Shown here: piece by piece, positions 24,716-62,146 of the stretch
Layout of the letters: each line of letters opens with the position of its first letter
Numbering within the stretch: position 1 is the first letter of the stretch
NCBI GenBank assembly: GCA_041740515.1
Contig: JBGSLV010000036.1
Coordinates: forward strand, 4,429-68,428
DNA length: 64,000 nt
From: Bdellovibrionales bacterium
GTDB lineage: Bacteria > Bdellovibrionota > Bdellovibrionia > Bdellovibrionales > UBA1609
Reading direction: 5' to 3'
Translations under genes and position numbers: made by a program
Notes under the pieces: generated by a model
What the model saw: only the letters and a program-made list of their open reading frames with translations
Database searches by the model: none
What the model was told of the DNA's origin: nothing

Positions 24716-24757
24716 ATTCTAATCCTTTAAAAAAGAATTTTACTTAAAAACTAGTAT

Positions 24758-25213: not shown

Positions 25214-25216
25214 TTT

Positions 25217-40193: not shown

Positions 40194-40236
40194 TTCTTTC
40201 TTGACAGCTTAAAGCTGGGCTAAGCACACTTAAGTG

Positions 40237-44232: not shown

Positions 44233-44317
44233 AATGATCCTTCCATGCTATTTATCGAGAAAACAGTAGGTACTCTTGATGTAGTATCAGGGTTTCTAAA
44301 CTATAGACTTGTTTTAT

Positions 44318-44342
44318 TTTTTAAGATTTTCTTAAGATTTCA
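44318..44342 (-). promoter_or_regulatory. conserved intergenic element, copy A (TTTTTAAGAT-ttt-CTTAAGATTTCA)
   Basis: 22 of 22 nt identical, apart from a 3-nt indel, to copy B at 60830-60851. Lies about 85-110 nt upstream of the PEGA/TPR lipoprotein start. Confidence 0.35.
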
Positions 44343-44462
44343 GATTCTTAAATATGCATTTTTTGTATTGAAAAAATTAAGCCTTAAATTGAAACAAATA
44401 AGACTTAAGTCGTGCAAAAACAATACTTCGTTAAATTTAATATGGCCGATAATTGCATTGAT

Positions 44463-47400
44463 TTAGGGTCCTGATTCCACTAGTATCTGCGAACTTCGAA
44501 TAGTTATTTGACCTTGTGATGGTGAAACTCGTGATACAAATTTTTCATTTATTGGAAGACCCACAATCTCTGGACTTCGATAGTTATTTAAAGTCGCAGG
44601 GTTGATAAAAATTTGTGATCCCGTCACTAAATTTAATCCTAGATTGCCAGAACTTGCACTATGATACATTAAATCCACTGACCCTTGCGATAAACTGTCG
44701 GTATCGGCTGTCACTTGATAATATACTTTAGGATTAGTAAATTGGCTTCGATCAAAAATAGCGCGTTGATAAGTAAGTATGGTTTCAACTCCAATCATGC
44801 GATTTAAAGATCCAATTCTATAAACTAAACTTGTTTTTGATAAATTTCTAAGTTTTACCCAAAGCCCCGCTTTGTGAATTCGGACGGAACCAGTTGAGCA
44901 GTAATATTCACATCGTAAAACTAATCTGTAATTGTGCCCTTCATTGACCCCACGAAATTGTAAAACACCTTCGTTAAATGGAATACTAGTTATTATTACA
45001 CCAGGTCCTGAAAATCGTGTTTCGGTCATAGCTACTAATTGGCTTGTGTTGTTATTGTAAAGCCCTAATATTCCTTCGGCTCCATTTACTGTTGAAATTA
45101 ATGTCTCAAGTTCCCAAGCGTTATACTCAATGATTTTATCTAAACTTAAAGCTCTTCTGGTAAATAGACTAGCTTGGGGGAAATCATGATAGACAGTGTC
45201 TGATGTGCTATAAGCAAAAACATCAGCGTCAACATTGATTGGGGATTCATCAGAGCTTAGCAAAGGATAATAGATTTTTGTCTTAGTAGCATTGACTTGA
45301 TTAACAAGTAATTTCGCCGAGTACACCGACAGCTGCCCATCTGAAGTCGTCTGTTCAAGCTCTAGTCGAAGTTTCTGTGCCCCCGAATTTATAGTTATAG
45401 GGGATTTAAAAACAGTAGGTTCAAAAGTATTTGCTGGAATTGTTATAAAATCCATCATCACATCTGACTCATTAACAATACCTACAGATCTAGCCGTTGT
45501 ATCAAAATTAGTTCCTATAACTTCAAACTCTAACCCTGTAACACCATCGTAGTCGTTAGTGTCAAAAGTTGTTAAAGTTCTATTGAAAGCTATGTTGTTA
45601 GAGCCACTAGATGCAATCGCTAAGTCTGTTAACTCAATAGGAACTTGAAAGCGTAAAGATCCATCTCTAATGATACTGACAGTGTTGGAACTCACCGATC
45701 TGCGACCATTTGCATACACTCCTCTTACGGCATAATAATAAGTCACAGCTGCGACCACATTACTGTCTAATGCTGAAGTTGTTACAGAAGTTTGTACCAC
45801 GCCGTAAGGACCTGAAGAGGATTCGGATCTTAAAACTTCATACTGTGTCACGGATGGGATAACATCCCAATTTAATTCAACAGCTGAGGTACCGTTTACG
45901 GCTGTTAAATTTGTCGGACCACTCACTAACAGGACCGAAACTTGATTGGAATTGTTAGAAATAACGCCTGAACTATTTACCGTTCGAAGTACATAAAAAT
46001 AACTATCCCCAGGAATTACCGTGGTGTCCAAGTACTCTGTGGTAGCTGGAGGTAACGTAGCTATGACACTGTAAGGTCCCCCTGAATTTACGGATCGAAG
46101 CAGTTCATAACTTGCGATGCTAGGAACATTCGGCCAATATAGCTCTACAGAATTTGTTGACTGCGAAGCTAAATTTAATCCAACCGGAGTTTGAGGTCGT
46201 ATTGATACATTCACAGGGTCACTGATCAGCGAGGTTGCCATTTCACTGCCGTTGATCGCTATAGCTTGATACTGATAATAATAGGTCTGAGCTGGTGCAA
46301 TTGAAGCGTCGACATAAGAGGTCGTTGGTAACCCTGAAGCAATGAGTTCAAAATTAACAGCGTTTGTTGAACGATATAAATTATAGGTATTTGCATTTAC
46401 GACACTTGCCCAAGATATTCCAATTGAAGTGGTAGTGTTAAATTGCACATCTGGCTTAGGCGTGCTCATTTCAGACTGGATCATGACTTCATTAGAAGGT
46501 GCACTTTCATTAAAGCCATTCAAAGCTGTAACTCTAAAATAATACGTAGTTCCTGCTACTAAACCACTGACAATAGTCCCTGAAGAGCTTGTAGTGTTCT
46601 GGATCGGGGCCCCGTAAACTCCGGAAGTTGTTGATCGATAAATATTAAAAGAAGTTCGCCCAGAGACATCCGTCCAAGTTAAATTCACATCATTTCCAGA
46701 TCCAGTGTTTTCAGCATGCAATTGCACTGGAGACAGTGGTATACGCCCAGGACTAAAACCAACGCTAATTGGCGAAAGCAATTGCAGTGGAGGATAGTTT
46801 GTCTTAATCCGATAAAAATATACGTTGCCATTGCTTGCAGTATTATCAGTGAAGTTTGTCATTGCATAGTTTGTGCTAATGGCACTAAAGGTTGATCCAT
46901 CCGTTGATCTTTCAATATCATAATCAATAGCCCCTGCCATTGGTGTCCATGACAAAGTCACTTGATTATTACCCGTTATTCCACTGGGGGCTGAAGCTGG
47001 CATAAATGTCCATGCTTGAGCTACTGGTGAAGTTTGAGGAACACCGGCAACAATGGCCACCACTCTGATGTAATATAAACTTTGAGGATTTAAGCCAAAT
47101 ATGGTTGCCGTATTCGTTGCTGTTGTGGTTGCTATTGTATATGGACCTGCAATGTTTAAGGCCCGTTCCACACGATAAGAAGTTGTGGCTGGAACACTTG
47201 GCCAATCTACACGCATGAACGTATCACCAAGAACCGTTAAGCTGATATTAGAGGGAAGGGTGGAAGTAGTTATTTGACCTAACACAACTTGAGATGATTG
47301 ACCCTCGGTTAAATCCGAAAAGCGCGCACGTACTCGGTAATAATAACCCGTGTTCACGTTGACTGCAGTGTCTTGATAAGTTGCCGTAGAGGCAACATCG

Positions 47401-50400
47401 TAATTGACAAATGGACCATCAAAAGAATTGGCTCTGGCTATGACATAGTCTTGCGCGCCAGCTACAGCATTCCAAGATAGTTGCAAACGATCCGATTGAG
47501 GAGCCATTGCAAAACCAGTTATAGGTGCATTTCTAAATCCAACAGTATTTGTAGGAGCTGTCTCATGACTTCCCCAAACCGCTGTGATTCGAAAAAAATT
47601 CATACCAGTTAATAAAGGTGCGGAACTCATAAATGTAGTGTTAATATTTTGGACAAAAGTAAATGGTCCAAGTTCATTGGCGGATCGGTACAATCTGAAA
47701 TTATTAAAATGTGAAGGTGATATCCAATCCAGCTGAACTCTATTATCTGCAGCAATGAAATTTAAAATCAAATTTCCCGGCGCAGATGGATTAACGTTTG
47801 CTCTTGCCGCTTTGATAGCAGTTGGATAACCGACGTAAATTTTATCGCCATCGATATCAAAAAGATAAGCTTGAACATAATAATAAGCCCCATCCATATT
47901 GGCTGTAGGATCAACCAAAGAACGTGGTGTATAGCCATCCACTAAAACTGAAAAATTTTTGTCAGGGTCTGAAGATTTATATACAGTGTAGAATAAATCC
48001 CCGGAATTGTAGGACCCAAAAGTGCTTGGTGCCGTCCAAGAAAGAATCACTTCGCCATCTCCAGGAGCAAGATTTAATTGTGGCGAATCCGAAGAGTAAA
48101 AACCGACAATATTTGAGCCCCCACTTTCAGAAAGTCCCCATCCTGCTCTGACACGAATGTAATTGATGTTATCATTGCCAAAACCACAATCATCAAATGA
48201 AGCTAAATCAGTAGAACCCATAAGCCCTAAAGAATTTTTTGGAAAGCCTTTATAAACATTAAATGTGTCATAGTAAGAAGATCTGGACCAATTTATTTTT
48301 AAACCCTGACCACCACCGCAACTAGCAATGGCATTAAGTGGAGTGATTGACAATAAGGTCGGAGCACTTGGATTAGCTTTTGGGACAGCTGAAGCTATAT
48401 TAGACTGGGAACTTTCACCGGCAGGATTACTGGCTTTGATTAAATAAAAATAAGTTTGTCCGTTCGACAAACCTGTATCTGCATAAAAAGTTGAAGTCGT
48501 TGTAACTCCTAGATCTGTAAATGGTCCGGCAAATTGTAAAGATCGAAAAATTCGATAAGTGACATTTTCAGGAAATCCACTCCAAGTCAAATTCACTCTT
48601 GAATCACCAACAGTAGTGACCAAATTATTAGAAGCAATTGGTGTTGGAGCTGCAATTGTGATACTAACTTCGGGGGAACTTTGGCTTCGCCCCGTAACAT
48701 TGGATGCAAACACGCGGTAATAATACGTCTCGCCATCAGTAATTTGTAAATCGTTATAGTTATTTCCAATCTGTTGACTGCTTAATACTGTATAAGGGCC
48801 ACCCGACTGGTTTGATCTTTCCACTGTGTATCTAGGAGTGGGATTTGCAAGTCCATCAGGAAGCCAAGACAAATTGACCGAACCATTTACATTGTTACTA
48901 GCCACCAAATTCGCTGGCGGTAAATTGTTATGTGTAAAATTGGTTAAAAATCGGCATGCAGATAAAGTTCCGACTTCATTTATTGTTTGGCCATACAAAG
49001 CCATTGTTGCATTCGGGTTTACTTGTATTGGCACACCAGTGGTTGTCAACAGAGTGGGATTTGCGGAAGTGACTAAACTTGTGCAGATGGAATTAGCATA
49101 AATACTTAAGTTAACTCGATTCATAAAATCTGGACTTAATGTGTAAGACCCAAACAGTCTAATCTCTTGGTTATAAGACGGAGAAGTAGGTGTAGTGCTT
49201 TGAAAGACAGGTGCGGCAGGTACAAGAATATTGTAAGTGTAAAAAGTTAAAAGCGTACAATTACTTTCATTACCTGCCGCATCGAAGGCTTTAGCATAGA
49301 TGGAAGTTTCAGCGTTGATATTCACATCAATCGTTATTCCTGTTGCATTAAATTGATTTGGTGTACCCTCACCCAGTTTTGTTACACAGGAGTCACTGTC
49401 AAAGAATTCAACTCTTGAAGGTGGCAACTGACTGGCTGGATTATCTAACACATCCCCTGAAATAGTCGGTGTCGAGGATTGATTGTTTGGTGAAATGGGA
49501 GCAATCCCGCTGTATGTTGGATTTACTGGAGACACATTATTATGAATATAAGTCGTTAAAAAAACACAAGCTGAAAAGTTACCGTAAATATCAACAGCGC
49601 GAGCAAAAAGCTGAGTGGTCGAATTTAAAGGCAAATTAGCAACAACTCCCGATGCTGTATATTGCCCTCTGGAAGCTGATGCAATCTGTGTGGTACAGGT
49701 TGGGTTGGTAAAAATCCGTATCGTTTCAATTGTAGGATCAGCTGTTCCTAAGATAGCAGGAGTACTAGAAAATCTTGAAGGCGAAGCAGGTACTGTGAAA
49801 GCAAATGTAGGATTCGGCGCAGGCACACTTGAATGTTCATAACTGGCATGGAAGGTACAATCGGACATATTACCTTCAAGATCAGAAACGCGGACGTAGA
49901 TGGGAGTGGTCGAATTGGTATCTAAGTTTAGCAAAATACCATTCACTTCATAATCATCGATATCCCCTTGACCCACACTGACAGTGCATAATTCATCTTT
50001 ATAGAAAAACAAATTTACTGTTCGAGCTGCCGCTTGCCCGATGATCAAAGGAGTTGTTGTTAAATTCGTAGGCGAAAGCGGATCTGTTCTATTAAACACT
50101 GGGTTTTCAGGAGGTGTAGTATTATGAATATAACTTGTTAAAAATGTGCAGTCCGAGCCATTATCAGAGCTATCAAAAGCTCGTGCGTAAATATTGGTTG
50201 TGTCATTGCTGCGTACATTTGTAACGGCACCAATTCCAATAAAATCAGGACGATTTCCAAAACCGATAGTGTTTAAACACAAAGCCGAATCATAAAAAAT
50301 AATCTCATCTGTATCGCTACTTGCCGAACCAAAAATTCTTGGCAAAGTCTTTTGGTTTGTGGGCGACATGGGACTTGCCCCTAAATATCCAAGAGCAGCT

Positions 50401-51350
50401 GGGGGTAAATTGTCATGAGTGTAAGTGGTAAATAAAGCGCATACGGATGGGGCTCCCATCCCATCAACGGATCTTGCATAAATAACTGTGGTTGCATTTT
50501 CAGGCAAAGTTACATCAAAGCCTGCCGTCTCAAAGTCACTGGGATCACCCGAAACCAAAAGGTTCATACAACCAGAATCTGTGTACAACGAAACTGTGAC
50601 TGAACCCACCGAGGTTGTACCTCTTATATTAGGCGCAAAAGAAGCTTTTGAAGGTGACAAAGGTGTAATGGCTAACAATTCAGGAAAGGGACTATTTACA
50701 TTTGAATGCGTAAAATCTGTCATGTAAACACAGCCCGACAATGTGCCAATAGGATCTCTGGTTCTTGCATAAATAGATGTTGTTTGGTTTAAAGGAAGCT
50801 GCACAGCTATGCCAGATTGCGCAAAATTACTTGCTGACCCCGAAGCTAAAGCTTGTGTGCAAATAGCGTCACTAAAAAATTCAACCGTTGACGACAATGG
50901 CAGTGCCTGCCCAAACAAACCCGGAGCCGTAGTAAATCTTGAGGGTGATTGGGGCGATATGGCAGTAAAAATTGGCTCCCCAGGAACTAAAGGGTCATGA
51001 CTAAAGTTTTCAAGCAGCAAGGTACATGTATTTAAAGCTTGCGATTTCACATAAAAATCAGTGGGCACGTTCACCGGAATTTGAACTAAAATTCCCGAAC
51101 TATTAAACTGCGCTACAGTAGCTTGGCCTACACTTACAGTTTGACATAAGTTATCTGTATGTACGGTGAGCAGGTCTAAATTCAAATAATCACTTGAAGT
51201 AACGCCAATAAGTCTTATTTGGGCCAAGACACTTGTGTAATCAATAAGTTGGCTAGAAGTCAGCGATACACTTAAATCTTCAGAAGAGTTTACACGCTCA
51301 CCATCAGCACAAGAAACTTGTAGCCCAAAAGCAAACAGTAATATTAGCAA
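44463..51350 (-). CDS. giant surface lipoprotein (about 2295 aa): 8 two-Cys Ig-like modules, 12 FN3 domains and a C-terminal triple module of unknown fold
   Basis: LLFAFGLQVSC lipobox-like N-terminus. About 98-aa modules follow the pattern SP.SP....P.I.G.......V.F..D..C.......F...G..V.L..N.TT.IYAR..D..GN.S.C...T.Y.H. The FN3 units follow V.L.W......Y.[VIL].RS...GP[YF].........Y.D......Y[YF]Y.V. The annotated start is TTG and is uncertain. Confidence 0.85.
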   Translation of the reverse strand: MLILLFAFGLQVSCADGERVNSSEDLSVSLTSSQLIDYTSVLAQIRLIGVTSSDYLNLDLLTVHTDNLCQTVSVGQATVAQFNSSGILVQIPVNVPTDFYVKSQALNTCTLLLENFSHDPLVPGEPIFTAISPQSPSRFTTAPGLFGQALPLSSTVEFFSDAICTQALASGSASNFAQSGIAVQLPLNQTTSIYARTRDPIGTLSGCVYMTDFTHSNVNSPFPELLAITPLSPSKASFAPNIRGTTSVGSVTVSLYTDSGCMNLLVSGDPSDFETAGFDVTLPENATTVIYARSVDGMGAPSVCALFTTYTHDNLPPAALGYLGASPMSPTNQKTLPRIFGSASSDTDEIIFYDSALCLNTIGFGNRPDFIGIGAVTNVRSNDTTNIYARAFDSSDNGSDCTFLTSYIHNTTPPENPVFNRTDPLSPTNLTTTPLIIGQAAARTVNLFFYKDELCTVSVGQGDIDDYEVNGILLNLDTNSTTPIYVRVSDLEGNMSDCTFHASYEHSSVPAPNPTFAFTVPASPSRFSSTPAILGTADPTIETIRIFTNPTCTTQIASASRGQYTASGVVANLPLNSTTQLFARAVDIYGNFSACVFLTTYIHNNVSPVNPTYSGIAPISPNNQSSTPTISGDVLDNPASQLPPSRVEFFDSDSCVTKLGEGTPNQFNATGITIDVNINAETSIYAKAFDAAGNESNCTLLTFYTYNILVPAAPVFQSTTPTSPSYNQEIRLFGSYTLSPDFMNRVNLSIYANSICTSLVTSANPTLLTTTGVPIQVNPNATMALYGQTINEVGTLSACRFLTNFTHNNLPPANLVASNNVNGSVNLSWLPDGLANPTPRYTVERSNQSGGPYTVLSSQQIGNNYNDLQITDGETYYYRVFASNVTGRSQSSPEVSITIAAPTPIASNNLVTTVGDSRVNLTWSGFPENVTYRIFRSLQFAGPFTDLGVTTTSTFYADTGLSNGQTYFYLIKASNPAGESSQSNIASAVPKANPSAPTLLSITPLNAIASCGGGQGLKINWSRSSYYDTFNVYKGFPKNSLGLMGSTDLASFDDCGFGNDNINYIRVRAGWGLSESGGSNIVGFYSSDSPQLNLAPGDGEVILSWTAPSTFGSYNSGDLFYTVYKSSDPDKNFSVLVDGYTPRSLVDPTANMDGAYYYVQAYLFDIDGDKIYVGYPTAIKAARANVNPSAPGNLILNFIAADNRVQLDWISPSHFNNFRLYRSANELGPFTFVQNINTTFMSSAPLLTGMNFFRITAVWGSHETAPTNTVGFRNAPITGFAMAPQSDRLQLSWNAVAGAQDYVIARANSFDGPFVNYDVASTATYQDTAVNVNTGYYYRVRARFSDLTEGQSSQVVLGQITTSTLPSNISLTVLGDTFMRVDWPSVPATTSYRVERALNIAGPYTIATTTATNTATIFGLNPQSLYYIRVVAIVAGVPQTSPVAQAWTFMPASAPSGITGNNQVTLSWTPMAGAIDYDIERSTDGSTFSAISTNYAMTNFTDNTASNGNVYFYRIKTNYPPLQLLSPISVGFSPGRIPLSPVQLHAENTGSGNDVNLTWTDVSGRTSFNIYRSTTSGVYGAPIQNTTSSSGTIVSGLVAGTTYYFRVTALNGFNESAPSNEVMIQSEMSTPKPDVQFNTTTSIGISWASVVNANTYNLYRSTNAVNFELIASGLPTTSYVDASIAPAQTYYYQYQAIAINGSEMATSLISDPVNVSIRPQTPVGLNLASQSTNSVELYWPNVPSIASYELLRSVNSGGPYSVIATLPPATTEYLDTTVIPGDSYFYVLRTVNSSGVISNNSNQVSVLLVSGPTNLTAVNGTSAVELNWDVIPSVTQYEVLRSESSSGPYGVVQTSVTTSALDSNVVAAVTYYYAVRGVYANGRRSVSSNTVSIIRDGSLRFQVPIELTDLAIASSGSNNIAFNRTLTTFDTNDYDGVTGLEFEVIGTNFDTTARSVGIVNESDVMMDFITIPANTFEPTVFKSPITINSGAQKLRLELEQTTSDGQLSVYSAKLLVNQVNATKTKIYYPLLSSDESPINVDADVFAYSTSDTVYHDFPQASLFTRRALSLDKIIEYNAWELETLISTVNGAEGILGLYNNNTSQLVAMTETRFSGPGVIITSIPFNEGVLQFRGVNEGHNYRLVLRCEYYCSTGSVRIHKAGLWVKLRNLSKTSLVYRIGSLNRMIGVETILTYQRAIFDRSQFTNPKVYYQVTADTDSLSQGSVDLMYHSASSGNLGLNLVTGSQIFINPATLNNYRSPEIVGLPINEKFVSRVSPSQGQITIRSSQILVESGP

Positions 51351-51392
51351 CCAAACACGTTCCAGAATAACTTCCTTAATAGTAAATTTTTT

Positions 51393-54300
51393 TTATTGAC
51401 CTAGAAACACTTTAATGAGCGCCTCCGAATCATCTAAAATGGTTATATCCAAAATTTGATCATTATTTAAATCATCGACAGCAATATGACTTGCATTCAC
51501 ACCCGTATTAATACTAGATATAGTTGCATAGTTGCCGGTTGGTGAACCAAACAAAATGGTTAGGTTTCGTTGCATACCATTGCCAACAATAATATCTTCT
51601 CGACCATTTCCGTTCAAATCACCTTTAGCCAGTGAAGTAGGTTCAATACCTGCTGAAAAATGATTGGCTGGATTAAAAGTTCCATCGCCTCGACCTTTTA
51701 AAATACTTACCGAAGATGATATGTTATTTGATACGGCTAAATCTAAGAAACCATCCGAATCAAAAAAACCAGCAATGATACCATTGGGGCCTGATTCAAC
51801 ATCAAAGTCTGCTGTTTGAAAGGTGCCATTGCCATTGGATAAAAACACTGTGACGGAATCATCGGACTGATTTACAACAGCCACATCCAAAACGAAATCT
51901 TCATTAAAATCACCAGCGGTAATATGTGAGGGTTGTGCTCCTGAAACTGAAGTTGTTCTTGGGCCAAATGATCCATCTCCTTGCCCAGGAAGAAAGTTCA
52001 TGCGATTTGCCCCACTGCAAGTTACGGCAACATCCATTAGACCATCGTTATTAAAATCTCCATGAACTATAGATGTGGGTTGTGAATGTACGGGATAACT
52101 TCCACCTGAAGCAAAAACACCGCCCCCTTGCCCCATAAAAACCCGCACTGAGCTTGCAGCATTAAGCACAATCACTAAGTCTACTAAACCATCGTTATTT
52201 AAATCTACAAAATCGGCATCAGTAGGACTATTGCCAACGTTTAAAAATCCAAGAGAACTAAACAAACCATTTCCTAAACCTTTGTGAAGAGTTATGGAAT
52301 TTGCGGCACGATTGACAACTGCTTTATCCAAAAATCCATCATTATCCAGATCATGACTGATCACTTTTACGGGTGTATCTGACACTGAGGTTAAAAAACC
52401 AAGTATTCCATCTGTTTGACCCGGTAAAATTTGAATTTTAGTTTCCCCATTAGAAACAATCAGTAAGTCCTGAAGCATATCCTGATTAAAATCTGAAGCC
52501 ATTATGTTGATGGGATTTGATAAAGTATTAATAGATGGTCTGATATCAAATGTCCCGGTATTCAAGCCGTAAAAAATTGAAAGCGTGCTATCGCCAACAT
52601 TAGCTATCGCTAAATCAATAAAGCCGTCGGCATTCAAGTCCTTAGCACTTAGAGCAATTGGCGTCAGCCCTACACTTGTAATATCCGGAATATCAAATGT
52701 TCCATCATTTAAGTTTAGAAATACCGAAATATTATCACTCCCACTATTTGTGACAATAATATCTTGAAAAAGATCACCGTTTAAACGAGCCATGGTAACA
52801 CTTGATGGGGCCACACCTGTGCTGTAAATCACTTGTGATGAAAAACCACCACTGCCATTATTAATATAAACACTCATCGTATCATCAGATGCGTTGATAA
52901 CAGCTAAATCTTCAAAACCATCGTTATTTAAATCACCTACCGCAACTTTTGTGGGTAGAGATCCAGAAGGATAAATAGTGGGTGAGTCAAAAGTGCCATT
53001 ATTATTTCCAAATCTTATTGCAATGTTGTTAGAAGCTCCATTGACTATCACAATATCTTTATCGCCATCATTGTTAAAATCACCAATGGCTACATCAACT
53101 GGTAAAGTTTCAAGGGGATCTTGCAAAGTATTTACGGCCGCACTGAAAGAACCATTGCCAACTCCAGCTAAAAATGAAAATTGCCCAGTCCCATTACAAA
53201 CTAAAATTAAATCTTTATTGGTGTCATTATTGAAATCCGCAAACGCCATGCCCGAAGGGCCGCTGCAAAGACCAGTTAGTTTGGACTGTGTGGTAAAAAG
53301 TCCGTTGCCTCGTCCCAAAAATCTAGAAATGGTAGCTTCACTTTTGTTTAAAACAAAAATATCATTGAAACCATCATTATTAAAATCACCAACCAAAGTA
53401 TTTTCGGCACCACTACCCACATTATAATTCAAATCAAAAGCTCCTGAATTTCTACTTTGACTTGATAATAAAAAGCGAGCTTTACTTAATCCTGAAGCAA
53501 CCACATCGGGTAGAGTTCCAATTAGGGGTAAAACAGAAACATAGGATCTTGCTGCATTATACCCTTGAAGCACCGATACCGTTGCCGTTCCTGATGCATT
53601 CGTGCGACGTTCTGAAGGACCAATGATATGAACATCCCCAGCTGTTCGTTGGAAGAGGACTGGATAATTTGATACGCCATTACCAAAACGATCTACAACT
53701 CGTATACTAATAGGTTCAGAAAAACTTTGCCCGATAAATGCGGACTGATTATTTCCACTAAGAGTAGGAAACTCAAAATGATCAGCGACATCTGCTAAAA
53801 CTTGAATGTTTATCTGTTGTGAAAATCCTTGGTTGTCAGTCACAGTTAAAACATCGGTGACGCCAGCTCGGGATCCCGCCGTATAAGTACTGGTGCTTGA
53901 ATTGTAATTCGCTGTCAGCGAATTATTTTGCGTTAACACAACCGTATATGGTGCTGTCCCGCCGGTGATATTAAAAACTTCACTTTGGCCAACAACGATC
54001 TGTGGATCATTTGGGATTACGCTTAATGACTGTTTTTGCCAAACTAAATTTAAGCTGGCTTGATTACCCGCTAGATCGGTTTGTCTGATTTCAATATTGT
54101 AATTGCCGTCAGCAAATTTAGGTAAACTTATACTAAATGTCGAATTGGAACATGTCGTAGAACCTGTACCATCATTGGCTAAACTAACCAAAGCGCCTGT
54201 TTCACAGCCCCCTTGAATATTGAGTACAGCCTCGCTAGAGCTATGTGGGTTACTGGGAGGATAAGTTAAAGAAGGTTGAGAGACGCTGGTTTTTCGATAC

Positions 54301-54671
54301 CAAATAAAACTCACTGGGGCTGAAATGTTTCCCATATCATTTTGAGTTAGAAAATAATTATAAACGCCATCGGTCGTTTGGCTTAGCGCAAAAGAAAATT
54401 CAGAGTTGGAGCATATCGTTGAGGCGATCGAGGCTCCAGAGAGAGAAATTAAACTCCCCGATTTACAAAGTCCTTGAATTGATAAAGTACTTCCTTGCGA
54501 GTAATAAGGGTTTTGTGCAGGAATACTTAAAACAGGTACTTCTATATCGGGACCATTGTTAGAGCTTTGAACATTAAGATTTTGTTTACAAGATATAAAA
54601 TTAATAACAGCAAAAAATGCTGTTATTAATTTTATAATTTTAAAACTAAAGTCAACGTTCCCTATATTCAT
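51393..54671 (-). CDS. lipoprotein with two-Cys Ig-like modules, Big-like domains and about 14 FG-GAP/VCBS repeats (two integrin-alpha-like propellers)
   Basis: Lipobox FAVINFISC. GDFNNDGFNDIFVLN-type Ca-binding FG-GAP loops repeat about 14 times. The N-terminal modules contain IRQTDLAGNQAS, like the repeats of the 10924..16419 protein. Confidence 0.85.
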   Translation of the reverse strand: MNIGNVDFSFKIIKLITAFFAVINFISCKQNLNVQSSNNGPDIEVPVLSIPAQNPYYSQGSTLSIQGLCKSGSLISLSGASIASTICSNSEFSFALSQTTDGVYNYFLTQNDMGNISAPVSFIWYRKTSVSQPSLTYPPSNPHSSSEAVLNIQGGCETGALVSLANDGTGSTTCSNSTFSISLPKFADGNYNIEIRQTDLAGNQASLNLVWQKQSLSVIPNDPQIVVGQSEVFNITGGTAPYTVVLTQNNSLTANYNSSTSTYTAGSRAGVTDVLTVTDNQGFSQQINIQVLADVADHFEFPTLSGNNQSAFIGQSFSEPISIRVVDRFGNGVSNYPVLFQRTAGDVHIIGPSERRTNASGTATVSVLQGYNAARSYVSVLPLIGTLPDVVASGLSKARFLLSSQSRNSGAFDLNYNVGSGAENTLVGDFNNDGFNDIFVLNKSEATISRFLGRGNGLFTTQSKLTGLCSGPSGMAFADFNNDTNKDLILVCNGTGQFSFLAGVGNGSFSAAVNTLQDPLETLPVDVAIGDFNNDGDKDIVIVNGASNNIAIRFGNNNGTFDSPTIYPSGSLPTKVAVGDLNNDGFEDLAVINASDDTMSVYINNGSGGFSSQVIYSTGVAPSSVTMARLNGDLFQDIIVTNSGSDNISVFLNLNDGTFDIPDITSVGLTPIALSAKDLNADGFIDLAIANVGDSTLSIFYGLNTGTFDIRPSINTLSNPINIMASDFNQDMLQDLLIVSNGETKIQILPGQTDGILGFLTSVSDTPVKVISHDLDNDGFLDKAVVNRAANSITLHKGLGNGLFSSLGFLNVGNSPTDADFVDLNNDGLVDLVIVLNAASSVRVFMGQGGGVFASGGSYPVHSQPTSIVHGDFNNDGLMDVAVTCSGANRMNFLPGQGDGSFGPRTTSVSGAQPSHITAGDFNEDFVLDVAVVNQSDDSVTVFLSNGNGTFQTADFDVESGPNGIIAGFFDSDGFLDLAVSNNISSSVSILKGRGDGTFNPANHFSAGIEPTSLAKGDLNGNGREDIIVGNGMQRNLTILFGSPTGNYATISSINTGVNASHIAVDDLNNDQILDITILDDSEALIKVFLGQ

Positions 54672-54729
54672 ATTTTAAATTGCAAATTCCTATTTCATAG
54701 TAAAAAGTTAAACCCTCAACAGTTAAAAT

Positions 54730-57700
54730 CTATTTCGGAAATCGTGTCATACGATTGCCATTTTTGTCTGTGACATATAAAAAGTGGTCGTCTCCAAACA
54801 TCATACCCAAAGAGTCATTAAATTTACCCAAAGTAGATCCACTAGAGACTCTTCCGCCTTGACACCATCCGGGTGTCAAATCTGATGACCCAGCACAGCC
54901 TGGATCGCCACCACTGGTTGGGAATGAAGCTTGAATGCCACCTTTCCAACCTACAATAGTTCCTGTGGTTTTATCCATTTTCCATATAGCAGCGCCATTG
55001 CCACTTCCACATGTGTTGGCATTCATACCGTAAATAAAATTTGAATCAACCCATACACTCACTGGCATTGAGCAGTCTAGACCATTACCAATATTGGCAA
55101 TGTTAGCAGCGGCACTTTGCCACGTGTTAACGTACATATCTTGTCGTGTGCTAGTGGATTCCACCAACACGCCACCAAAAGTGTATTTGTCGATACGGAT
55201 ATTTCTAGTATTGGTGATGTATAAGTGCGAACCGTCTGTGGCTATTCCACCTCGATCATAGTTACCCCAATCAAAGTTAAAACCACCACCACGATCATTT
55301 CTATAACTCGCTAAAGAGGCCGAACCACCTAAGCACCATCCTGCCACGGATACCACATAGTTGCCATTACTTGCTGTTGTACAACCTGGATTTGGCGCTG
55401 AACCCACTCGACCAATCCAACCATTGAAATTTCCCGTAGCCGCATTATAGGAGGACACACGGTGATTTCTTGTATCAACTACATATAAATTCCCACCATG
55501 GAAGACAATAGCTGTGGGTTGATACATTTGACCATCCCCATTACCTTCTCGGCTAAGTCCACCTAAACACCAACCCGGAGTAAAAGAGTTCACTCCAGCG
55601 GCTGTACATCCAGGATCGCCACCGGTTGGAATATTAGCCACAGAATTTCCAATGCGACCAATCCATCCCCCATAAGCACCAGTATCAAGATTGAACCTTT
55701 GAATTCGATGTAAACTAAAATCAGTTACATACAACCATGTGCCATCAGTGGTTAAACCGTGGGGTCTTTGCATTATACCATTAACGTTGGAAGCAATTAA
55801 GTTTTGATCACCCCATGTGAAAGACGGATAATTACTGGCTCCTAAACACCAACTCGGTGATGGCCCCATAGCATTGGCCGCTAAACAGGAAGCTGGATTT
55901 TGTCCTCCCGTAGCGGTCGAGGTCATAGCTCCGATCCAACCTATTAATTCCCCAGTGCGTTTATTAAATTTTTTAACTCTAGAGCCATCCACTTCGGCCA
56001 TAAACAAAAAATCACCCACAATAAGTGAACCCATAGGATTATAAGTCGAATAGTCATCAAAGCCATGAAATTCCACTCGTGCTTGTCTGTCAGAAGACCA
56101 TGATCTTGGACTGATGCTCTCTAGACCAATGCTGCCTTGATAATTACCTGTGCTAACGCTGAATTTTTTAAGCATAGGAAAGCGTCGACTGATGGTCACA
56201 AATGAGCCTGAACCATCTAAAGCAAGGCCCCAATTATCCAAGAAAGAAGTTTCATCTAAACCTGGTTTGTAGGTTCCACCCAAGCACCATCCCGGTGTGT
56301 TTTGATTTGACGCCAACGAGTTACAGCCTGCATTACCACTCATGCCTGAAGGGTTGGCGACTTTCCCCATCCAAGATTCTATGAGGCCAGTTGCACCAAC
56401 TTTTAAAATACGCTCATCATCGGCCACATAAAAGAATGATCCATCAAAATCCATTGCAATAGGATTGTTCCAATTGAAACTTAAATTGGCTAATCGTTGG
56501 ATAAAGGCACCAGTATCAATATTATATCTATTGATCACACCACCATCACCACTATTTAGGACGTATAGGTTTGTGCCACTGATAACCATGTCACGGGCTT
56601 CACGAACACCACCTTGCACCCCACTTTGGGATTGAGCATTGGAATATAAAAACTCACCACCAAAACACCAACCTGGAGTCCGTTGACCTTGTGGAGTTGA
56701 AGTACAACCTACGGCTCCCCCAGTTGGAGTCACGTTAACAATACCTAACCAACCTTGAAAGGCCCCTGTGGCTTTATTATATCTTAAAACAGCACCAGAA
56801 ACGCCTACATACATGAATACAGAATCTACTTTTACACCGTTGGGGTTAATCATACGCCCATCACCGATTCGACTGTTTCCAGTATCAAGGCTTCCACCTC
56901 GACACCAACCCGGTGACACTGTACTTGTTGAAGTGTTACAGCTTCCAGGACCACCCGTTGCCGATCCACTTGGAGCTGTTGTACCTATCAGACCAATCCA
57001 CCCTTCGAATTCACCGGTATCAATACGGTGACGAGAGACTGAATTTGTATTTGAACTTGAAACATAAATGTAAGTATCATCGGCTGTAATGCCCCATGGA
57101 TTACTAAATCCCCCAGTTGATTCAGTACCATTGATTGACAATCCACCCACACACCATCCTGGCAATGGCTGATCATTGCCGGTTCCAACGCATAATGCAC
57201 TGCTTGGAATCGATTGCGCACTTCCAGATGGTCCTATACCGTTCTCGCGGCGCATACGCCCAATCCATCCACGATACTCTAATGATTGGTAGTCGTACTT
57301 GATCACACGGTTGGCATCATGATCTGCTACAAATAAGAACTGTTTATTTGGCGAAAAAGCTATATGATTCGCACCACGAATTCCATCATATCGTGCGGCA
57401 ACTGGTTTTACGCCCATTCTAAAAGGCAATAAATTTCCATTTGAATCTGTCTGAGTTGAAGCAGTTCCAACCCAACCTAAATCGCCAAGAACAGCCCATG
57501 CTTGTGTAGCAGCTGTTAAAACTCCAGCACTATGAGTCGCCGTCAAAGTTAAACTTGTTTCAGGAAACTGCCCTTTAAAGTAAAACTGTCTTGAGCTTTG
57601 ACCTGAAATAAAAGTTGTAGATGTAATGATTGCGGTACAATTATTATCGCTATAAAAAGCCCCTGAAATTCCTGCCCCAGATAAATTAGCTTGGGTTGTT

Positions 57701-60591
57701 GCCACCACCGGAGCCACTGTTCCTACACCGTCTAAAGTTTCTAGAACAAATGGTCCTCGACACTGGCTAGTTAAAGAACTTACTGGCAACACAGGAGGTG
57801 TTATACGAAACGCAGATGGGCTGATCGTTAATGTTCGAGTACTAGACTGGGTCATTCCCAAGGCCACATTCGAAATAAAAATATTTAAAATCTCAGCCTG
57901 GTTACCACGGAAATATACGGGTGTTGATCCCGATCCATTCGGCATAGTGATTGTCGTATTAGACCCACCACCTGTGCATGACGAAGATGTGTAAAATCGG
58001 CCAGTGGTTGATACTCCCTGTACACCGTTGATGGTTAGATTTAAATTTTGATGTGCAGGAACAACATTATTTAAAGTGTCTCGAAGACTTACCGTAAATG
58101 CAGTTGAACATTGACCTGCGACAACGCTTGATGGTCCTGTATAATTAATTCTTGAAGCTAAAACTTTAATCTCTTGCGGCAAGGACACCGTAGTAATTAA
58201 ACCATTTGGATCAGCGGCGTTAACCATTAAATTTTCACCCACAGGATCTCTTAAATAAACAAAAGTATTTGAATTTGGCGCGGCCCCTAAACTCATTGGA
58301 AAACTTGTAGCCGTAATCGCCGTTGTACAAGTATCATCAGAAAAAAGCGTGGCACTTGACCCTAATATACCAGACATAGCTATATTAATTGTTCCAAAAA
58401 CTTGTCCTTGGGTGTCGTCCTCTGCAAGGGGTGAAATCACAATTCGAGTTGAACATTGTCCAGATAGAACCGTCAGCAATGTTCCTGGGGCTGCAGGAAT
58501 AGCAGCTTCAGCCAATAAACGAATTTTACTTGGTGTGATATTCAAAGCGTAGTTTGCCGCTGTTAAAACAGATGAAGAGTCAGAGACTGCAATATTTAAA
58601 GCCAATGATTTATTATTTTTTAAATAAAGAATTTTAGTGTTTTGTCCTGTACTGAATAGAACATTGGTACTTAGTGGTGCGCCCCCACATGTGTTGCTAG
58701 AGTAAAAACTTGAAGTCCCATGACCAGAGATTTGCACGGTTGTATTACCAGTGGCGTTGGCTAAATTGCCTCCTAAATCGCGAAGCTGTATTAAGATCTG
58801 ATCACTACACTGTCCCGATCGAACTTCACTAGGACCTGATACTGTAATGACTCTTGGTATGCCGGCTGTAATGTTAAAGTTATTACTTGTTGCTGGAGTT
58901 AAAACTCCAGAATTGGCGACCAAACGATAGTTGGTACCTGTTCTATCAATACCTAAATCATTAAACTGAGCAATCCCATTAACAGCGACCACAGGATTTG
59001 TTCCGGTAAGTATTGCACCATTAACGTTATTCGAAATTGTTAAAGCAATTGATGACGAAGCTTGTGCACCTGTGGTGATAAGATTGCCCTGGGCATCTTG
59101 AACTGCAAGTTGAATTGGGTTCATACTTGCCAGACCTGCAGGGGAAGTTTGTGGCTGTGCTAAAAAAGCCAATCGAGCAGGAGGCCCCGCTTTGAACGGA
59201 GCTAAAACTTGTATGGCATTAAGACCCGAGGGTGAAGTGATACTTAAAACTCTTGCCGGTGTTGTATCTGCAATTGAAGTTGAAATAGAACCAGTTGTGA
59301 CTCCCGTTGCATCGGTGTTTAACGAGGGCTGTGTTATCGAATCACCCACAATGTTCGAAGAAAATTGCGGTCTAATTCCTGAAACGGGGTTTCCAAAAGA
59401 ATCACGAAGCGTAAAAATCACTTGATAGGAATCCGAGCCATTGGCAATCAAAGCTTCAAACGGAGGAATAATGGCTGGATTAATTGTTAGTGTACTTAAA
59501 GTCGGCGAAACGTTTCCTGGTGTTATATTAAATTGGCTAGAGTCAACAACCATCTCTGGACTACCAAAAGGTAAACCTGAGGTATCAGCTTTACGTGCCG
59601 ATATTATTTTTAATCCCGACTCTTCAAAATTAATTCCAGTGAATGTGGCAACTCCCGCCACAGCATTGATGGCAAATGTTCCACCAACACTTCCGCTGGA
59701 GGGGGATGTCGGTGCGATCTCTAAAGTGATAAGAGCCGTGGCATCAGGTCCCCCTGAAACAATATTACCATTTTCATCTAAAACTCGTACTACAGGCTGT
59801 TGAGTTAATATTTGTCCCGCTTGAGCATTTCCAGGTTGGGTTGCAAAAACTAAAGATTCAGCTCGACCCAAAGCTGTAAAGGTCACAATTTGATTATTAT
59901 TATCTTCAATACCATCAACGGAAACAGCAACACGGCAATTATAAACTGTGTTTGTAACTAAGCTTGTGATTGGCACGCTTGTCAAAGTGATATCTGTAAG
60001 TGTGCTAACTAAACTGAATTCAGTTGCTGCAGCGGTTTTACAATAGACGCTAACTGCTGTGGCTTCACCGGATGTAGCAGGACTAAAATTTAAAATAGCT
60101 TCAGTGCTACTTACTACAAGTGCATTGGTTGCACCCCCATAAGCAATACCTGGAAGATCATTTTCATTTATGTCTTCCATATCTCGATCATCAACAGCTT
60201 TGACTCGAAATTGGTAAACTCTATTTCTATTTAAGCCTGAAATAATGGTTGAAGACACGTTGCCAACTTCTCGTTTAATTTCTGGGAAGGAAGGTAAAGT
60301 TGTATCGTAGATGCGATAACCTGTTACTCTTGTGCTTGAAGATTGAGTCCAAGTGATTCGGACCGAAGAGTCTGATAAAGTTTGGACTGTGGCAGCTCCG
60401 GTAAAGCCACCAAATGTTGTATCCCCATCAATGATAGCTTGAGTTAATGACTCTTCAGAAGGCATACATGAAACTACGGCATGAAGAGATAAGACTAATA
60501 TTAATCTTAAGAAATTTTTTAAGTGAAACAATCTATTAAGATTTGCTGCTTTATAATTATAAACTTGTAAAATGGCTTTTACATGTTTCAT
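54730..60591 (-). CDS. giant surface lipoprotein (1953 aa): 2 FN3, Big/invasin-like Ig domains, 4 two-Cys domains, and about 10 NHL-like beta-propeller blades carrying a GWIG...C...PGWCxGG insert
   Basis: Start set at ATG 60591 after GGGAGAG (MKHVKAIL...LILVLSLHAVVSC lipobox). NHL-like strands: HGLTTDGTWLYVTDFSLHRIQRFNLDTGAY and PTAIVFHGGNLYVVDTRNHRVSSYNAATGNF. The ORF track's extra 35 N-terminal codons are unlikely to be translated. Confidence 0.85.
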   Translation of the reverse strand: MKHVKAILQVYNYKAANLNRLFHLKNFLRLILVLSLHAVVSCMPSEESLTQAIIDGDTTFGGFTGAATVQTLSDSSVRITWTQSSSTRVTGYRIYDTTLPSFPEIKREVGNVSSTIISGLNRNRVYQFRVKAVDDRDMEDINENDLPGIAYGGATNALVVSSTEAILNFSPATSGEATAVSVYCKTAAATEFSLVSTLTDITLTSVPITSLVTNTVYNCRVAVSVDGIEDNNNQIVTFTALGRAESLVFATQPGNAQAGQILTQQPVVRVLDENGNIVSGGPDATALITLEIAPTSPSSGSVGGTFAINAVAGVATFTGINFEESGLKIISARKADTSGLPFGSPEMVVDSSQFNITPGNVSPTLSTLTINPAIIPPFEALIANGSDSYQVIFTLRDSFGNPVSGIRPQFSSNIVGDSITQPSLNTDATGVTTGSISTSIADTTPARVLSITSPSGLNAIQVLAPFKAGPPARLAFLAQPQTSPAGLASMNPIQLAVQDAQGNLITTGAQASSSIALTISNNVNGAILTGTNPVVAVNGIAQFNDLGIDRTGTNYRLVANSGVLTPATSNNFNITAGIPRVITVSGPSEVRSGQCSDQILIQLRDLGGNLANATGNTTVQISGHGTSSFYSSNTCGGAPLSTNVLFSTGQNTKILYLKNNKSLALNIAVSDSSSVLTAANYALNITPSKIRLLAEAAIPAAPGTLLTVLSGQCSTRIVISPLAEDDTQGQVFGTINIAMSGILGSSATLFSDDTCTTAITATSFPMSLGAAPNSNTFVYLRDPVGENLMVNAADPNGLITTVSLPQEIKVLASRINYTGPSSVVAGQCSTAFTVSLRDTLNNVVPAHQNLNLTINGVQGVSTTGRFYTSSSCTGGGSNTTITMPNGSGSTPVYFRGNQAEILNIFISNVALGMTQSSTRTLTISPSAFRITPPVLPVSSLTSQCRGPFVLETLDGVGTVAPVVATTQANLSGAGISGAFYSDNNCTAIITSTTFISGQSSRQFYFKGQFPETSLTLTATHSAGVLTAATQAWAVLGDLGWVGTASTQTDSNGNLLPFRMGVKPVAARYDGIRGANHIAFSPNKQFLFVADHDANRVIKYDYQSLEYRGWIGRMRRENGIGPSGSAQSIPSSALCVGTGNDQPLPGWCVGGLSINGTESTGGFSNPWGITADDTYIYVSSSNTNSVSRHRIDTGEFEGWIGLIGTTAPSGSATGGPGSCNTSTSTVSPGWCRGGSLDTGNSRIGDGRMINPNGVKVDSVFMYVGVSGAVLRYNKATGAFQGWLGIVNVTPTGGAVGCTSTPQGQRTPGWCFGGEFLYSNAQSQSGVQGGVREARDMVISGTNLYVLNSGDGGVINRYNIDTGAFIQRLANLSFNWNNPIAMDFDGSFFYVADDERILKVGATGLIESWMGKVANPSGMSGNAGCNSLASNQNTPGWCLGGTYKPGLDETSFLDNWGLALDGSGSFVTISRRFPMLKKFSVSTGNYQGSIGLESISPRSWSSDRQARVEFHGFDDYSTYNPMGSLIVGDFLFMAEVDGSRVKKFNKRTGELIGWIGAMTSTATGGQNPASCLAANAMGPSPSWCLGASNYPSFTWGDQNLIASNVNGIMQRPHGLTTDGTWLYVTDFSLHRIQRFNLDTGAYGGWIGRIGNSVANIPTGGDPGCTAAGVNSFTPGWCLGGLSREGNGDGQMYQPTAIVFHGGNLYVVDTRNHRVSSYNAATGNFNGWIGRVGSAPNPGCTTASNGNYVVSVAGWCLGGSASLASYRNDRGGGFNFDWGNYDRGGIATDGSHLYITNTRNIRIDKYTFGGVLVESTSTRQDMYVNTWQSAAANIANIGNGLDCSMPVSVWVDSNFIYGMNANTCGSGNGAAIWKMDKTTGTIVGWKGGIQASFPTSGGDPGCAGSSDLTPGWCQGGRVSSGSTLGKFNDSLGMMFGDDHFLYVTDKNGNRMTRFPK

Positions 60592-60829
60592 CTTTACTCT
60601 CCCGCTTACGTACAAATTCTTTAACAAAATTGAACAGATATTTATCGTCATGTTATATAAAGTCCTGCAGATTCTAAGAGGACATAAGTGTTTCAATTTA
60701 AGAATAGACTAAATTTTAAGACCAAAGTTCAGAAAACAAATCTTAAGATTAGGTTAAAGGATAAATCTTCATCACTCATCCAACGTAGTGGATTTAAGTG
60801 TATCAAAATAAGAATTTATTATGTTCTGA

Positions 60830-62043: not shown

Positions 62044-62146
62044 ACTTTTAAGGTTCTCAAATACTAAGACTTCTGACAATGAATATCAGCGAGATGAATA
62101 AGTAATTAACCGAAATAGTCTAAAATAGTTTTGACAGGTGTATATA

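Follow-up and report, generated by a model that had tools for sequence, protein, structure and literature searches.

Three giant putative lipoproteins of a Bdellovibrionales bacterium as part of a candidate gene module with a FliF/FliG-like inner-membrane protein

A stretch of 64,000 nucleotides (nt) from a Bdellovibrionales bacterium (assembly GCA_041740515.1, contig JBGSLV010000036.1), which we call the window and in which positions are counted from the first letter, carries on its minus strand three consecutive genes for giant putative lipoproteins with adhesion-type folds. Are these three separate adhesins, one surface structure, or a part of something larger? A sequence-only reading of the window had favoured the second answer, a multi-component surface fibre or adhesive pad encoded by a single transcription unit. 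We find that the trio is best explained, as judged by sequence comparison, as part of a module of at least seven genes that is specific to Bdellovibrionota. To the reading that the giants are anchored in the outer membrane (OM) and serve a non-flagellar, rotor/stator-like machine of the cell envelope as its output, we give a probability of about one half. The seven genes have the working names u1, g1, g2, g3, d1, d2 and d3, in minus-strand order from position 62079 down to 41122 (lengths in amino acids, aa):

60934..62079, minus strand: u1, a secreted protein of about 370-381 aa with a signal of the signal peptidase I type (..NVLA/EG) and the terminal residues ...YVALSF
54730..60591, minus strand: g1, a putative lipoprotein of 1953 aa, counted from the ATG at 60591
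51393..54671, minus strand: g2, a putative lipoprotein of 1092 aa
44463..51365, minus strand: g3, a putative lipoprotein of about 2295-2300 aa; the TTG at 51350, its first canonical start, gives 2295 aa
43510..44232, minus strand: d1, a TPR lipoprotein of 240 aa with the signal ..FLTSC/G
41747..43513, minus strand: d2, a bitopic inner-membrane protein of 588 aa, a natural fusion of FliF(RBM3)-like and FliG-like parts
41122..41796, minus strand: d3, a small secreted protein of 224 aa, OM beta-barrel-like, which overlaps the end of d2 by 50 nt

The three large open reading frames (ORFs) are genuine genes rather than chance ORFs, since each of them has dozens of full-length homologues. For g1 there are about 40 full-length orthologues at 33-77% identity, mostly 1921-1977 aa long; two of them, at 33% identity, reach 2017 and 2115 aa. 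Orthologues of g2 have 1064-1145 aa in every trio locus. For g3, besides an exact copy (P0001), we found 18 full-length orthologues of 2258-2404 aa at 33-63% identity. All relatives with the trio are metagenome-assembled genomes (MAGs) of Bdellovibrionales, Bdellovibrionaceae or Pseudobdellovibrionaceae, with no cultured strain among the labels.

Conservation of the trio as a unit had been named by the sequence-only reading as a check, and the check comes out in its favour. In the trio-anchored set of seven independent loci (the window and six fetched contigs with g3 orthologues) the genes g1-g2-g3 stand in the same order and orientation seven times out of seven, down to about 31-37% identity (overall 31-77%). 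The gaps between them range from -16 to 178 nt and are mostly not longer than 60, and the lengths are 1907-2081, 1064-1145 and 2258-2404 aa, respectively. Since indels are few in the alignment of the g3 orthologues and every repeat keeps a nearly invariant Cys pair, the number of repeats in g3 is fixed, which, unlike the situation in typical repeat adhesins, argues for a defined architecture. Furthermore, the evolutionary rate of the giants is close to that of d1-d3. Their constant lengths and average rate make them resemble components of a machine rather than free adhesins.

Because order and near-identical lengths are kept in every relative examined, the trio is, in terms of its genes, one unit and not three independent adhesins. 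We regard it as very improbable that three giant adhesins merely share an operon and are unconnected to each other or to their neighbours. It is true that every one of the three carries a signal peptide and a set of binding-type domains of its own, and that the window holds another, unlinked giant lipoprotein with Ig-type repeats. This explanation would, however, have to account for the fact that every locus seen has all three genes with invariant order, spacing and lengths, for the lack of any locus with only one or two of them where the contig suffices, and for an adjacency to d1-d3 that persists through inversions.

Next, we asked which genes accompany the trio. The block d1-d2-d3 adjoins it in 15 loci, namely the window, L083, L085/L104, L086, L088, L091, L093-L096 and L098-L102 (L numbers are our labels for loci). 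In L083, L085/L104, L086 and L088 the block was found by tblastn near the trio. A search anchored on d2 gave 12 further independent loci, and in ten of these (L091, L093-L096, L098-L102) g3 is adjacent, as is g2 where the contig reaches that far. Within the block, the d1 orthologues adjoin d2 in every d2 locus with sequence on that side, d3 always follows d2 in the loci examined, and the reading frames of d1/d2 and d2/d3 overlap. Homologues of u1 adjoin either the trio or the d1-d3 block in L083, L086, L089, L090 and L101. Depending on the lineage, the block and the trio are arranged in tandem, convergently or divergently; since their adjacency outlasts inversions, we take it as a strong sign of a functional linkage. 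Thus the trio does hold together as one unit, as the sequence-only reading had it, while the end that it set for this unit at 44463 does not hold, since d1-d2-d3 downstream and u1 upstream are linked to it.

The gene upstream of u1, u2 (62147..63496, minus strand), was considered as a further member of the module and rejected as probably not belonging to it, because the related loci lack a homologue, apart from the identical Logan contig. It encodes a Cys-rich protein of 449 aa without a signal peptide and without a match in Pfam or NCBIfam, and its recurring C..G motifs recall RCC1-like blades.

In d2 we distinguish two regions:

43007..43420, minus strand: periplasmic domain of d2 resembling a ring-building motif (RBM), residues about 32-169, followed by a transmembrane (TM) helix at about 179-210
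41789..42781, minus strand: cytoplasmic region of d2 resembling the N, M and C domains of FliG, residues about 245-575

As a single sequence, d2 matches nothing significantly in Pfam, NCBIfam or the PDB. The profile of its family (31 homologues), compared with the PDB, matches Thermotoga FliG (1lkv, middle and C-terminal domains, E 2.6e-9) at profile positions 358-570. There are nine further distinct PDB matches; all are FliG, and one of them is a FliF-FliG fusion construct. Taken individually, 12 of the 31 family members match FliG_C and 10 match FliG_M in Pfam. An AlphaFold2 model with a mean predicted local distance difference test (pLDDT) of 72 has a signal or TM segment, a periplasmic alpha-beta-beta-alpha-beta domain with an insertion, a TM helix, a disordered linker and an all-helical part at residues 245-575. 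Among the top 14 Foldseek matches of this model there are 13 FliG entries and one integrative model of FliF, and full-length FliG aligns over 305-326 columns. In FliG of E. coli, the residues R281, D288 and D289 of the torque helix contact MotA. The corresponding segment of d2 is SPRAKQILEDDL, in which the positions of D536 and D537 are acidic in all 31 members (D in 30 and E in one for the former, D in 24 and E in seven for the latter).

The periplasmic region of d2 lies between two membrane segments and is predicted to have an RBM fold. According to the model, d2 has only one domain of RBM size and not the RBM1-RBM2-RBM3 architecture, and the designation FliF(RBM3)-like rests on the predicted fold, since there is no FliF match at the level of sequence. 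At 50% identity the family falls into about 160 clusters (E<=1e-30, fragments included). Its full-length members have about 550-750 aa, mostly about 580-650, and are annotated as hypothetical or, by automatic mis-calling, as FliG. Even on a conservative view, d2 defines a new protein family.

If d2 is a rotor-like protein, what could drive it? Genes for MotA and MotB, the latter with MotB_plug and OmpA domains, are found in the fetched loci L083, L085, L089, L092, L098 and L101 (Pfam matches MotA_ExbB, MotB_plug and OmpA), and in L098 and L101 they directly flank d1-d3. The MotA proteins linked to these loci are mutually orthologous, being 64-72% identical over five differently arranged loci, while the one from L085 reaches 44%. 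In NCBIfam they match the models PomA/MotP/MotA best, and the linked MotB match MotD/MotB best (E 1e-37 to 1e-47), with scores far under the equivalog cut-offs. Since these models score best and TolQ is far weaker (for the linked MotA, E 5e-5 against 2e-45 for PomA), we classify the linked MotAB, by their sequences, as divergent stators of the flagellar type and not of the Tol/Exb/Agl type. They keep the prolines that correspond to P173 and P222 in MotA of E. coli.

In several relatives MotAB have further companions, namely a GYF_2-domain protein, a coiled-coil-like protein of about 323 aa and a LysM protein with a weak YscJ_FliF match (E 0.02). The GYF_2 protein is encoded beside MotAB in L083, L092 and L101, and about 6 kb downstream of MotAB in L089. 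Possibly, these three proteins belong to the same machine too. The regions are as follows:

L083, 21841-25544: MotAB/GYF/323-aa/LysM region
L089, 18513-21002 and 26263-27215: the same kind of region, in two parts
L092, 5847-8059 and 14574-17024: the same, in two parts
L101, 5743-7987 and 12483-15339: the same, in two parts; the contiguous order of genes in L101 is g3, 323-aa protein, LysM protein, u1, d1, d2, d3, MotA, MotB, GYF protein

Because the trio is linked to d1-d3 and u1 and, in relatives, to MotAB, we consider a motor-associated mechanism likelier than a passive adhesive one. Lipidation, location in the OM and at the surface, physical assembly, coupling to a stator and the function of the module are what we infer here, and the mechanism would be the following. 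The trio genes would be co-transcribed, and their products would be giant envelope proteins, exported by Sec and lipidated at their N-termini. RBM proteins form rings or arrays, and d2 would likewise do so in the inner membrane. A MotA/MotB stator, powered by an ion-motive force, would act on the FliG-like torque helix of d2 with its invariant acidic pair. The force would then cross the periplasm through the RBM domain of d2 and the TPR lipoprotein d1 to the OM barrels and the giants. The tip of g3 would bind a ligand of the glycan type, and the output would be gliding on surfaces, or a motor-aided contact with the substratum or with prey.

A more specific version, which we hold only tentatively, would make the trio the outer part, in contact with the substrate, of an undescribed non-flagellar rotary (or rack-and-pinion) machine, in which a ring or array of d2 is driven by dedicated MotAB. 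With this version, the motor-plus-adhesin apparatus that Bdellovibrionota have been missing for gliding or prey contact would also be identified, as an offshoot or a relic of the flagellar motor without the core of type III export. If the motor-linked reading is true, flagellar rotor and stator parts would for the first time be seen to power something besides a flagellum; since the rotor-stator pair would exist without an export apparatus, this would also bear on the evolution of the flagellar motor. Furthermore, there would be a concrete candidate for the motor, the force path and the adhesins of Bdellovibrionota gliding; a 2026 review describes the gliding machinery, motor and adhesins of Bdellovibrio as unidentified and as a major open challenge (PMC13104615).

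On the other hand, the same genes could make a static complex for adhesion or prey recognition, anchored by u1, d1 and d3, in which d2 is a mere anchor or regulator, its FliG-like domain having been co-opted for signalling or localisation, and the MotAB are ordinary stators that lie nearby by chance. The adhesion-type folds and the CBM-like (resembling carbohydrate-binding modules) tip of g3 fit such a complex, and MotAB are missing from most loci, including the window. Bdellovibrio is reported to carry several flagellar motAB pairs, so a chance proximity is conceivable, and charges of the R90/E98 type were not recovered in the linked MotA, in a loop that aligns poorly. A co-opted FliG-like domain also has a precedent in the N-domain of MgtE. 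What makes us doubt this explanation, which we put below the tentative rotary version, is that MotA proteins of one orthologous group, 64-72% identical, turn up beside the cluster in five loci of different arrangement, in two of them abutting d1-d3 directly, and that d2 retains the full N/M/C architecture of FliG, the invariant acidic pair and a predicted ring-building domain of the FliF type, which goes beyond a generic helical domain. Even this conservative reading yields a multi-protein complex that can be tested.

The sequence-only reading had described three consecutive genes for proteins of 1953, 1092 and about 2295 aa with gaps of 58 and 42 nt, and the ORF calls agree with it (strand: minus). 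The ORF of g1 (54730..60696, minus strand) has 1988 aa if counted from a TTG and 1953 aa from the ATG at 60591; the latter length is matched by an independent gene call in the Logan contig. Neither the 58-nt gap between g1 and g2 nor the 42-nt gap between g2 and g3 contains a terminator-like hairpin, according to a promoter and terminator scan whose overall counts were at the level of shuffled sequence.

The start of g3 is less simple. Its frame is open upstream as far as the stop codon of g2 (51351..51392, minus strand). The only Shine-Dalgarno-like element for g3, AAGGAAG at 51377-51371, is 22 nt from the TTG and 5 nt from an in-frame CTG at 51365; an in-frame ATT at 51380 is an alternative start. 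With the TTG, g3 would have a signal of 14 residues without an n-region. In the L088 orthologue, which is 63% identical, the position homologous to this CTG is the TTG with which the protein starts (M-E-R-N...). Since the spacing of the Shine-Dalgarno-like element fits and the start of this orthologue matches, the real N-terminus of g3 is probably MERVWLLILLFAFGLQVSC, with the CTG at 51365 as a non-canonical start codon that the gene callers probably missed.

The hydrophobic N-terminal segments ending in Cys that had been reported for the trio (AVVSC in g1, NFISC in g2, LQVSC in g3) are indeed present, and the position of the Cys is kept in every orthologue inspected. The N-termini noted for d1 (LTSC) and for a further giant protein of 1831 aa in the window (LTTGC) were found as well. 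A charged n-region and a hydrophobic h-region precede the Cys in g1, g2, g3, d1 and the 1831-aa protein, for g3 only if it starts at the CTG or the ATT. The Cys codons of the trio are:

60466..60468, minus strand: lipobox Cys codon (TGT) of g1, residue 42; passes the lipobox rules, kept in 6/6 orthologue N-termini
54588..54590, minus strand: signal-end Cys codon of g2, residue 28; the box FISC is atypical, the Cys is kept in 7/7 orthologues
51309..51311, minus strand: signal-end Cys codon of g3; the box QVSC is atypical, the Cys is kept in 7/7 orthologues

As lipobox rules we used [LVI][ASTVI][GAS]C, or a core of the PROSITE PS51257 type that ends in Cys. In the window they are satisfied by g1, d1 and the 1831-aa protein alone. 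Over the 20 N-termini of g1-g3 (window copies included) the signal-end Cys is conserved in all, and 16 satisfy the PROSITE-type core; the commonest lipobox of the orthologues, found among others in most of those of g2, is L[ST][AG]C. Asp is rarely the residue that follows the lipobox Cys. Processing of the trio proteins by signal peptidase II therefore seems likely, in the case of the window copies of g2 and g3 because their orthologues carry the conserved Cys and lipobox.

The 1831-aa protein itself (10924..16419, minus strand, counted from ATG, signal ..LFLTTGC) is a fourth giant putative lipoprotein of the window. It has Ig repeats of the Big_6/Big_13/Glucodextran_B type as well as Ca-tandemer, PamR-like and OmpL47-type matches, and in related loci it is unlinked to the trio.

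For the domain architecture of the giants we combined the Pfam and NCBIfam searches with repeat numbers from self-profile scans, and the two approaches agree with the composition that had been proposed from sequence alone: FN3, Big and NHL-like domains in g1, two FG-GAP propellers in g2, and twelve FN3 domains in g3. The main regions are:

54733..57465, minus strand: NHL-like propeller region of g1, residues 1043-1953, from Pfam and the repeat scan, with 7 GWCxGG motifs
51441..53504, minus strand: FG-GAP array of g2, residues 390-1077, 14 blades by self-profile
48888..51224, minus strand: Cys-repeat array of g3, eight tandem repeats of about 97 aa with two conserved Cys each, residues 43-821
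45714..48890, minus strand: FN3 array of g3, exactly twelve domains, residues 821-1879
44466..45698, minus strand: C-terminal head of g3, about 410 aa, three tandem beta-jelly-roll (CBM-like) domains

In g1 the Pfam matches are fn3, Big_1/Invasin_D3, NHL and SGL. The fn3 family (PF00041) scores above its gathering cut-off of 25 in g1 (41.5 bits) and in g3 (80.5 bits). The self-profile of g1 gives four Ig-like units of about 90 aa each (residues 574-1007) and about 11-12 NHL-like blades (residues 1043-1953), each with a GWIG...C...PGWCxGG insert. On the whole protein, NHL (PF01436) scores 39.7 bits against a cut-off of 20 without any single significant stretch, and SGL scores 28.9 bits; the region probably forms two six-bladed propellers. 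In g2, FG-GAP_3 scores 270.8 bits (cut-off 26.9, E 5.1e-82) in 12 stretches, next to Big_1/Big_13 matches. As the blade count is 14, these would make two seven-bladed propellers of the integrin-alpha type. A scan of the genome collection with the FG-GAP motif of g2 returned 379 generic FG-GAP proteins from many phyla and no orthologue; the matches have at most 38-41% identity and are confined to the propeller.

The only Pfam matches in g3 are to fn3, and its repeats of about 97 aa match no Pfam family. Its head had been reported as a domain of unknown kind at the C-terminus. The head is there, and it can now be given a fold: modelled with 17 orthologues, residues 1885-2295 are all-beta and form three tandem jelly rolls (pLDDT 92.5, predicted template modelling score 0.89), which suits a binding tip. 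The head is probably a soluble tip that binds a ligand or a glycan, as far as the model can tell. The C-terminus of g3 had also been considered as a translocator beta-barrel or as a sorting signal; both are ruled out by the three soluble jelly rolls of the model. Besides, weak matches of the OmpL47 type occur in g3 and in the 1831-aa protein of the window.

None of the three giants matches, in Pfam or NCBIfam at E<=0.01, an RTX family, a C-terminal domain of the type IX secretion system (T9SS) or an autotransporter family. The absence of signals for type I, type V and type IX secretion, stated by the sequence-only reading, is thus confirmed, and we rejected the trio as cargo of any of these three systems.

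Within the module, u1 and d3 would be the only candidates for taking the giants across the OM. The C-terminal part of u1, about 200 aa, has an alternating pattern of beta-strands, and it is probable from this sequence that u1 is an OM beta-barrel with a periplasmic N-domain; it has no Pfam or NCBIfam match, and the Logan gene call starts at 62043. The small protein d3 has a weak PorG match (E 0.019), and its L083 orthologue a weak Pfam match to OMP_b-brl. For the TPR protein d1, a PEGA domain had been proposed as well; this part could not be upheld, as there is no such Pfam match.

With the N-termini and the domains in view, one more explanation has to be weighed, to which we give slightly less credit than to the static complex and which we consider unlikely. 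The giants could be anchored in the OM and yet face the periplasm, as a ring, cage or track beneath the OM around a MotAB-driven FliF/FliG-like rotor, so that their role would be structural and not adhesive. PorK/PorN/GldJ of the T9SS and the disks of FlgP/PflA/PflB in motors of the Campylobacter type are comparators for such a scaffold. Lengths and repeat numbers that are almost invariant over 31-77% identity, unusual for surface adhesins, would fit it, as would the evolutionary rate shared with d1-d3, the lack of a detected surface-export signal in the trio, the general rule that Gram-negative lipoproteins are mostly periplasmic by default, and the presence of the rotor-like d2 and a TPR lipoprotein in the same cluster. 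However, g3 consists of 23 tandem beta-sandwich domains with a CBM-like tip, and its extended length would be far above the width of the periplasm; FN3, Big_1/invasin-like and FG-GAP domains typify extracellular binding proteins; and the OM barrels u1 and d3 could supply a route or an anchor across the OM.

Several observations weigh against the motor-linked reading that we prefer. With respect to location, the Pfam and NCBIfam searches found no surface-export signal in the trio, and no secretion or flipping route was identified; the window copies of g2 and g3 fail both lipobox rules, with an F at -3 preceded by an N at -4 in g2 and a Q at -3 in g3. With respect to d2, the Arg position of the torque helix is R in only 17 of the 31 members. 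The comparison of the periplasmic-domain profile with PDB sequences found no FliF, PF01514 is unmatched in Pfam, and the model of the RBM domain has a pLDDT of about 65-86, with loops below 50 in the insert at 81-118. The EHPQ motif of FliG, which binds FliM, is not conserved, the equivalent columns being N/Q, D/N, variable and D/K. Since this motif is not conserved and there are no genes for FliM/N or other flagellar proteins in any of about 19 loci, d2, judged by its sequence and neighbours, is FliG-like and not an orthologue of FliG.

The stators and the phenotype add to these points. MotAB are within reach in 6 of about 19 independent loci, and the genes for MotAB and for the GYF and LysM partners are absent from the 64-kb window. 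The R90 and E98 of E. coli MotA align to uncharged residues in the linked MotA, in a loop where the alignment is poor. Two trio loci, L089 and L090, have no d1-d3 within the sequence covered. Conversely, L092 and the short L097 carry d1-d2-d3 without the trio nearby; in L092, where 10 kb are covered on each side, MotAB and the GYF protein are also present. Potentially, there is a platform of d1-d3 without the trio in these two cases, or the trio may be located elsewhere in their genomes. Finally, every member of the family comes from an uncultured MAG and hence is without a phenotype.

Elsewhere in the window we see several other gene groups. A complete cluster of the TonB2 type (18875..27374, minus strand) has DUF3450, two MotA_ExbB, ExbD, TonB_C and a TPR protein, followed by a TonB-dependent receptor of 1197 aa with an N-terminal CarboxypepD_reg-like domain. 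The ExbB/ExbD of this cluster belong to the TonB system and differ from the MotAB stator that accompanies the module in relatives. Next to the module, at 38228..41097 (plus strand), lies a group resembling metal or metalloid resistance genes, with a MerR-family regulator, an ArsC-like low-molecular-weight phosphatase, an SBF/ACR3-like transporter and a CzcD-like facilitator; a gene for a CzcD-like cation-diffusion facilitator adjoins the module in L088 too. The gene of an ankyrin-repeat protein of 339 aa (16813..17832, plus strand) lies between those of the 1831-aa lipoprotein and of an alpha/beta hydrolase, and ankyrin-repeat genes are found near the module in L088 as well. The G+C content is 0.40-0.45 in the giant genes (44001..60000 and 12001..16000) and 0.29-0.39 in the rest of the window, which may come from the Gly-, Ala-, Thr- and Pro-rich beta domains rather than from a foreign origin.

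Does the module belong to a kind of system that is already described? Taken one by one, the folds of the trio are ordinary adhesion folds, and giant lipoproteins with Ig or FN3 domains exist elsewhere. In the literature that we searched we found no description of the cluster, nor of any non-flagellar combination of MotAB with a FliG-like protein anchored in the membrane. Since, in addition, membership in the Bacteroidota and Agl-Glt systems fails, we rate the conserved gene set, from its gene content, as lying outside the described kinds of system. The nearest precedent that we found in the literature is a natural FliF-FliG fusion of Chlamydiaceae, with about 330 aa and unknown function (Bergeron 2016, PMC4768692). 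Like d2, it is a single chain with a signal or TM segment, a shortened periplasmic RBM region, a TM segment and a FliG-like cytosolic domain, in organisms without a complete flagellar set; unlike d2, it retains an RBM2 of the SctJ-like kind, its FliG-like part is limited to a FliG-M-like region, and a role in an injectisome has been proposed (PMC4768692). By description, d2 is set apart from it by its length of about 590 aa, an RBM3-like domain, a full FliG-like region and the linkage to MotAB and the giants.

The flagellar rotor/stator core (FliF, FliG and MotA/MotB or PomA/PomB) shares rotor and stator homology with the module. In the flagellum, however, FliF and FliG are two polypeptides and not one, and FliF has RBM1/2, which house the export gate, whereas d2 has a single RBM and no RBM1/2. 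The EHPQ motif is not conserved in d2, the clusters have no genes for FliM/N, the export apparatus, rod, hook or filament, and the linked MotA/MotB are far under the NCBIfam equivalog cut-offs. The partners here are a TPR lipoprotein, OM barrels and three giant lipoproteins.

Two gliding systems have a scheme like the one that the module would have. In Bacteroidota, the OM barrel SprF is encoded beside the gene of the giant adhesin SprB. The Bacteroidota apparatus (GldLM, GldJ/K/N, SprF, SprB) combines an ion-driven motor and OM lipoproteins with a giant repeat adhesin as output (PMC13104615), while the module has no GldL/M, no T9SS and no C-terminal sorting domain; its giants are themselves lipoproteins, and its motor parts are of the flagellar type. 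The Agl-Glt focal-adhesion system of Myxococcus is, as the module would be, an envelope-spanning complex with a motor driven by proton-motive force, TPR proteins and small OM barrels (GltA/B/H-like). Its motor, on the other hand, is the TolQR-like AglRQS and not a stator of the flagellar MotAB type, and it has no known FliG-like component. Its CglB is an integrin-domain OM lipoprotein adhesin (PMC9946355); it is a small VWA protein, compared with propeller and FN3 giants of 1000-2300 aa. Near the module in relatives, only the GYF_2 protein recalls GltJ, the gliding protein of Myxococcus in which a GYF domain is present (PMC11135422).

Finally, two kinds of surface protein can be compared with the giants themselves. 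The tips of the mosaic adhesive fibres of Bdellovibrio (C-terminal domain of Bd2734, PDB 8okw) resemble the g3 head only at the generic level of jelly rolls, and g3, in contrast to them, is built of globular repeats, has a lipobox and is part of a conserved multi-gene set. The Lig/OmpL47-type lipoproteins of Leptospira share with the trio a lipobox signal and long arrays of Ig-like or FN3 domains; they are stand-alone adhesins with a variable number of repeats, whereas in the trio the architecture is fixed and the partners are obligatory.

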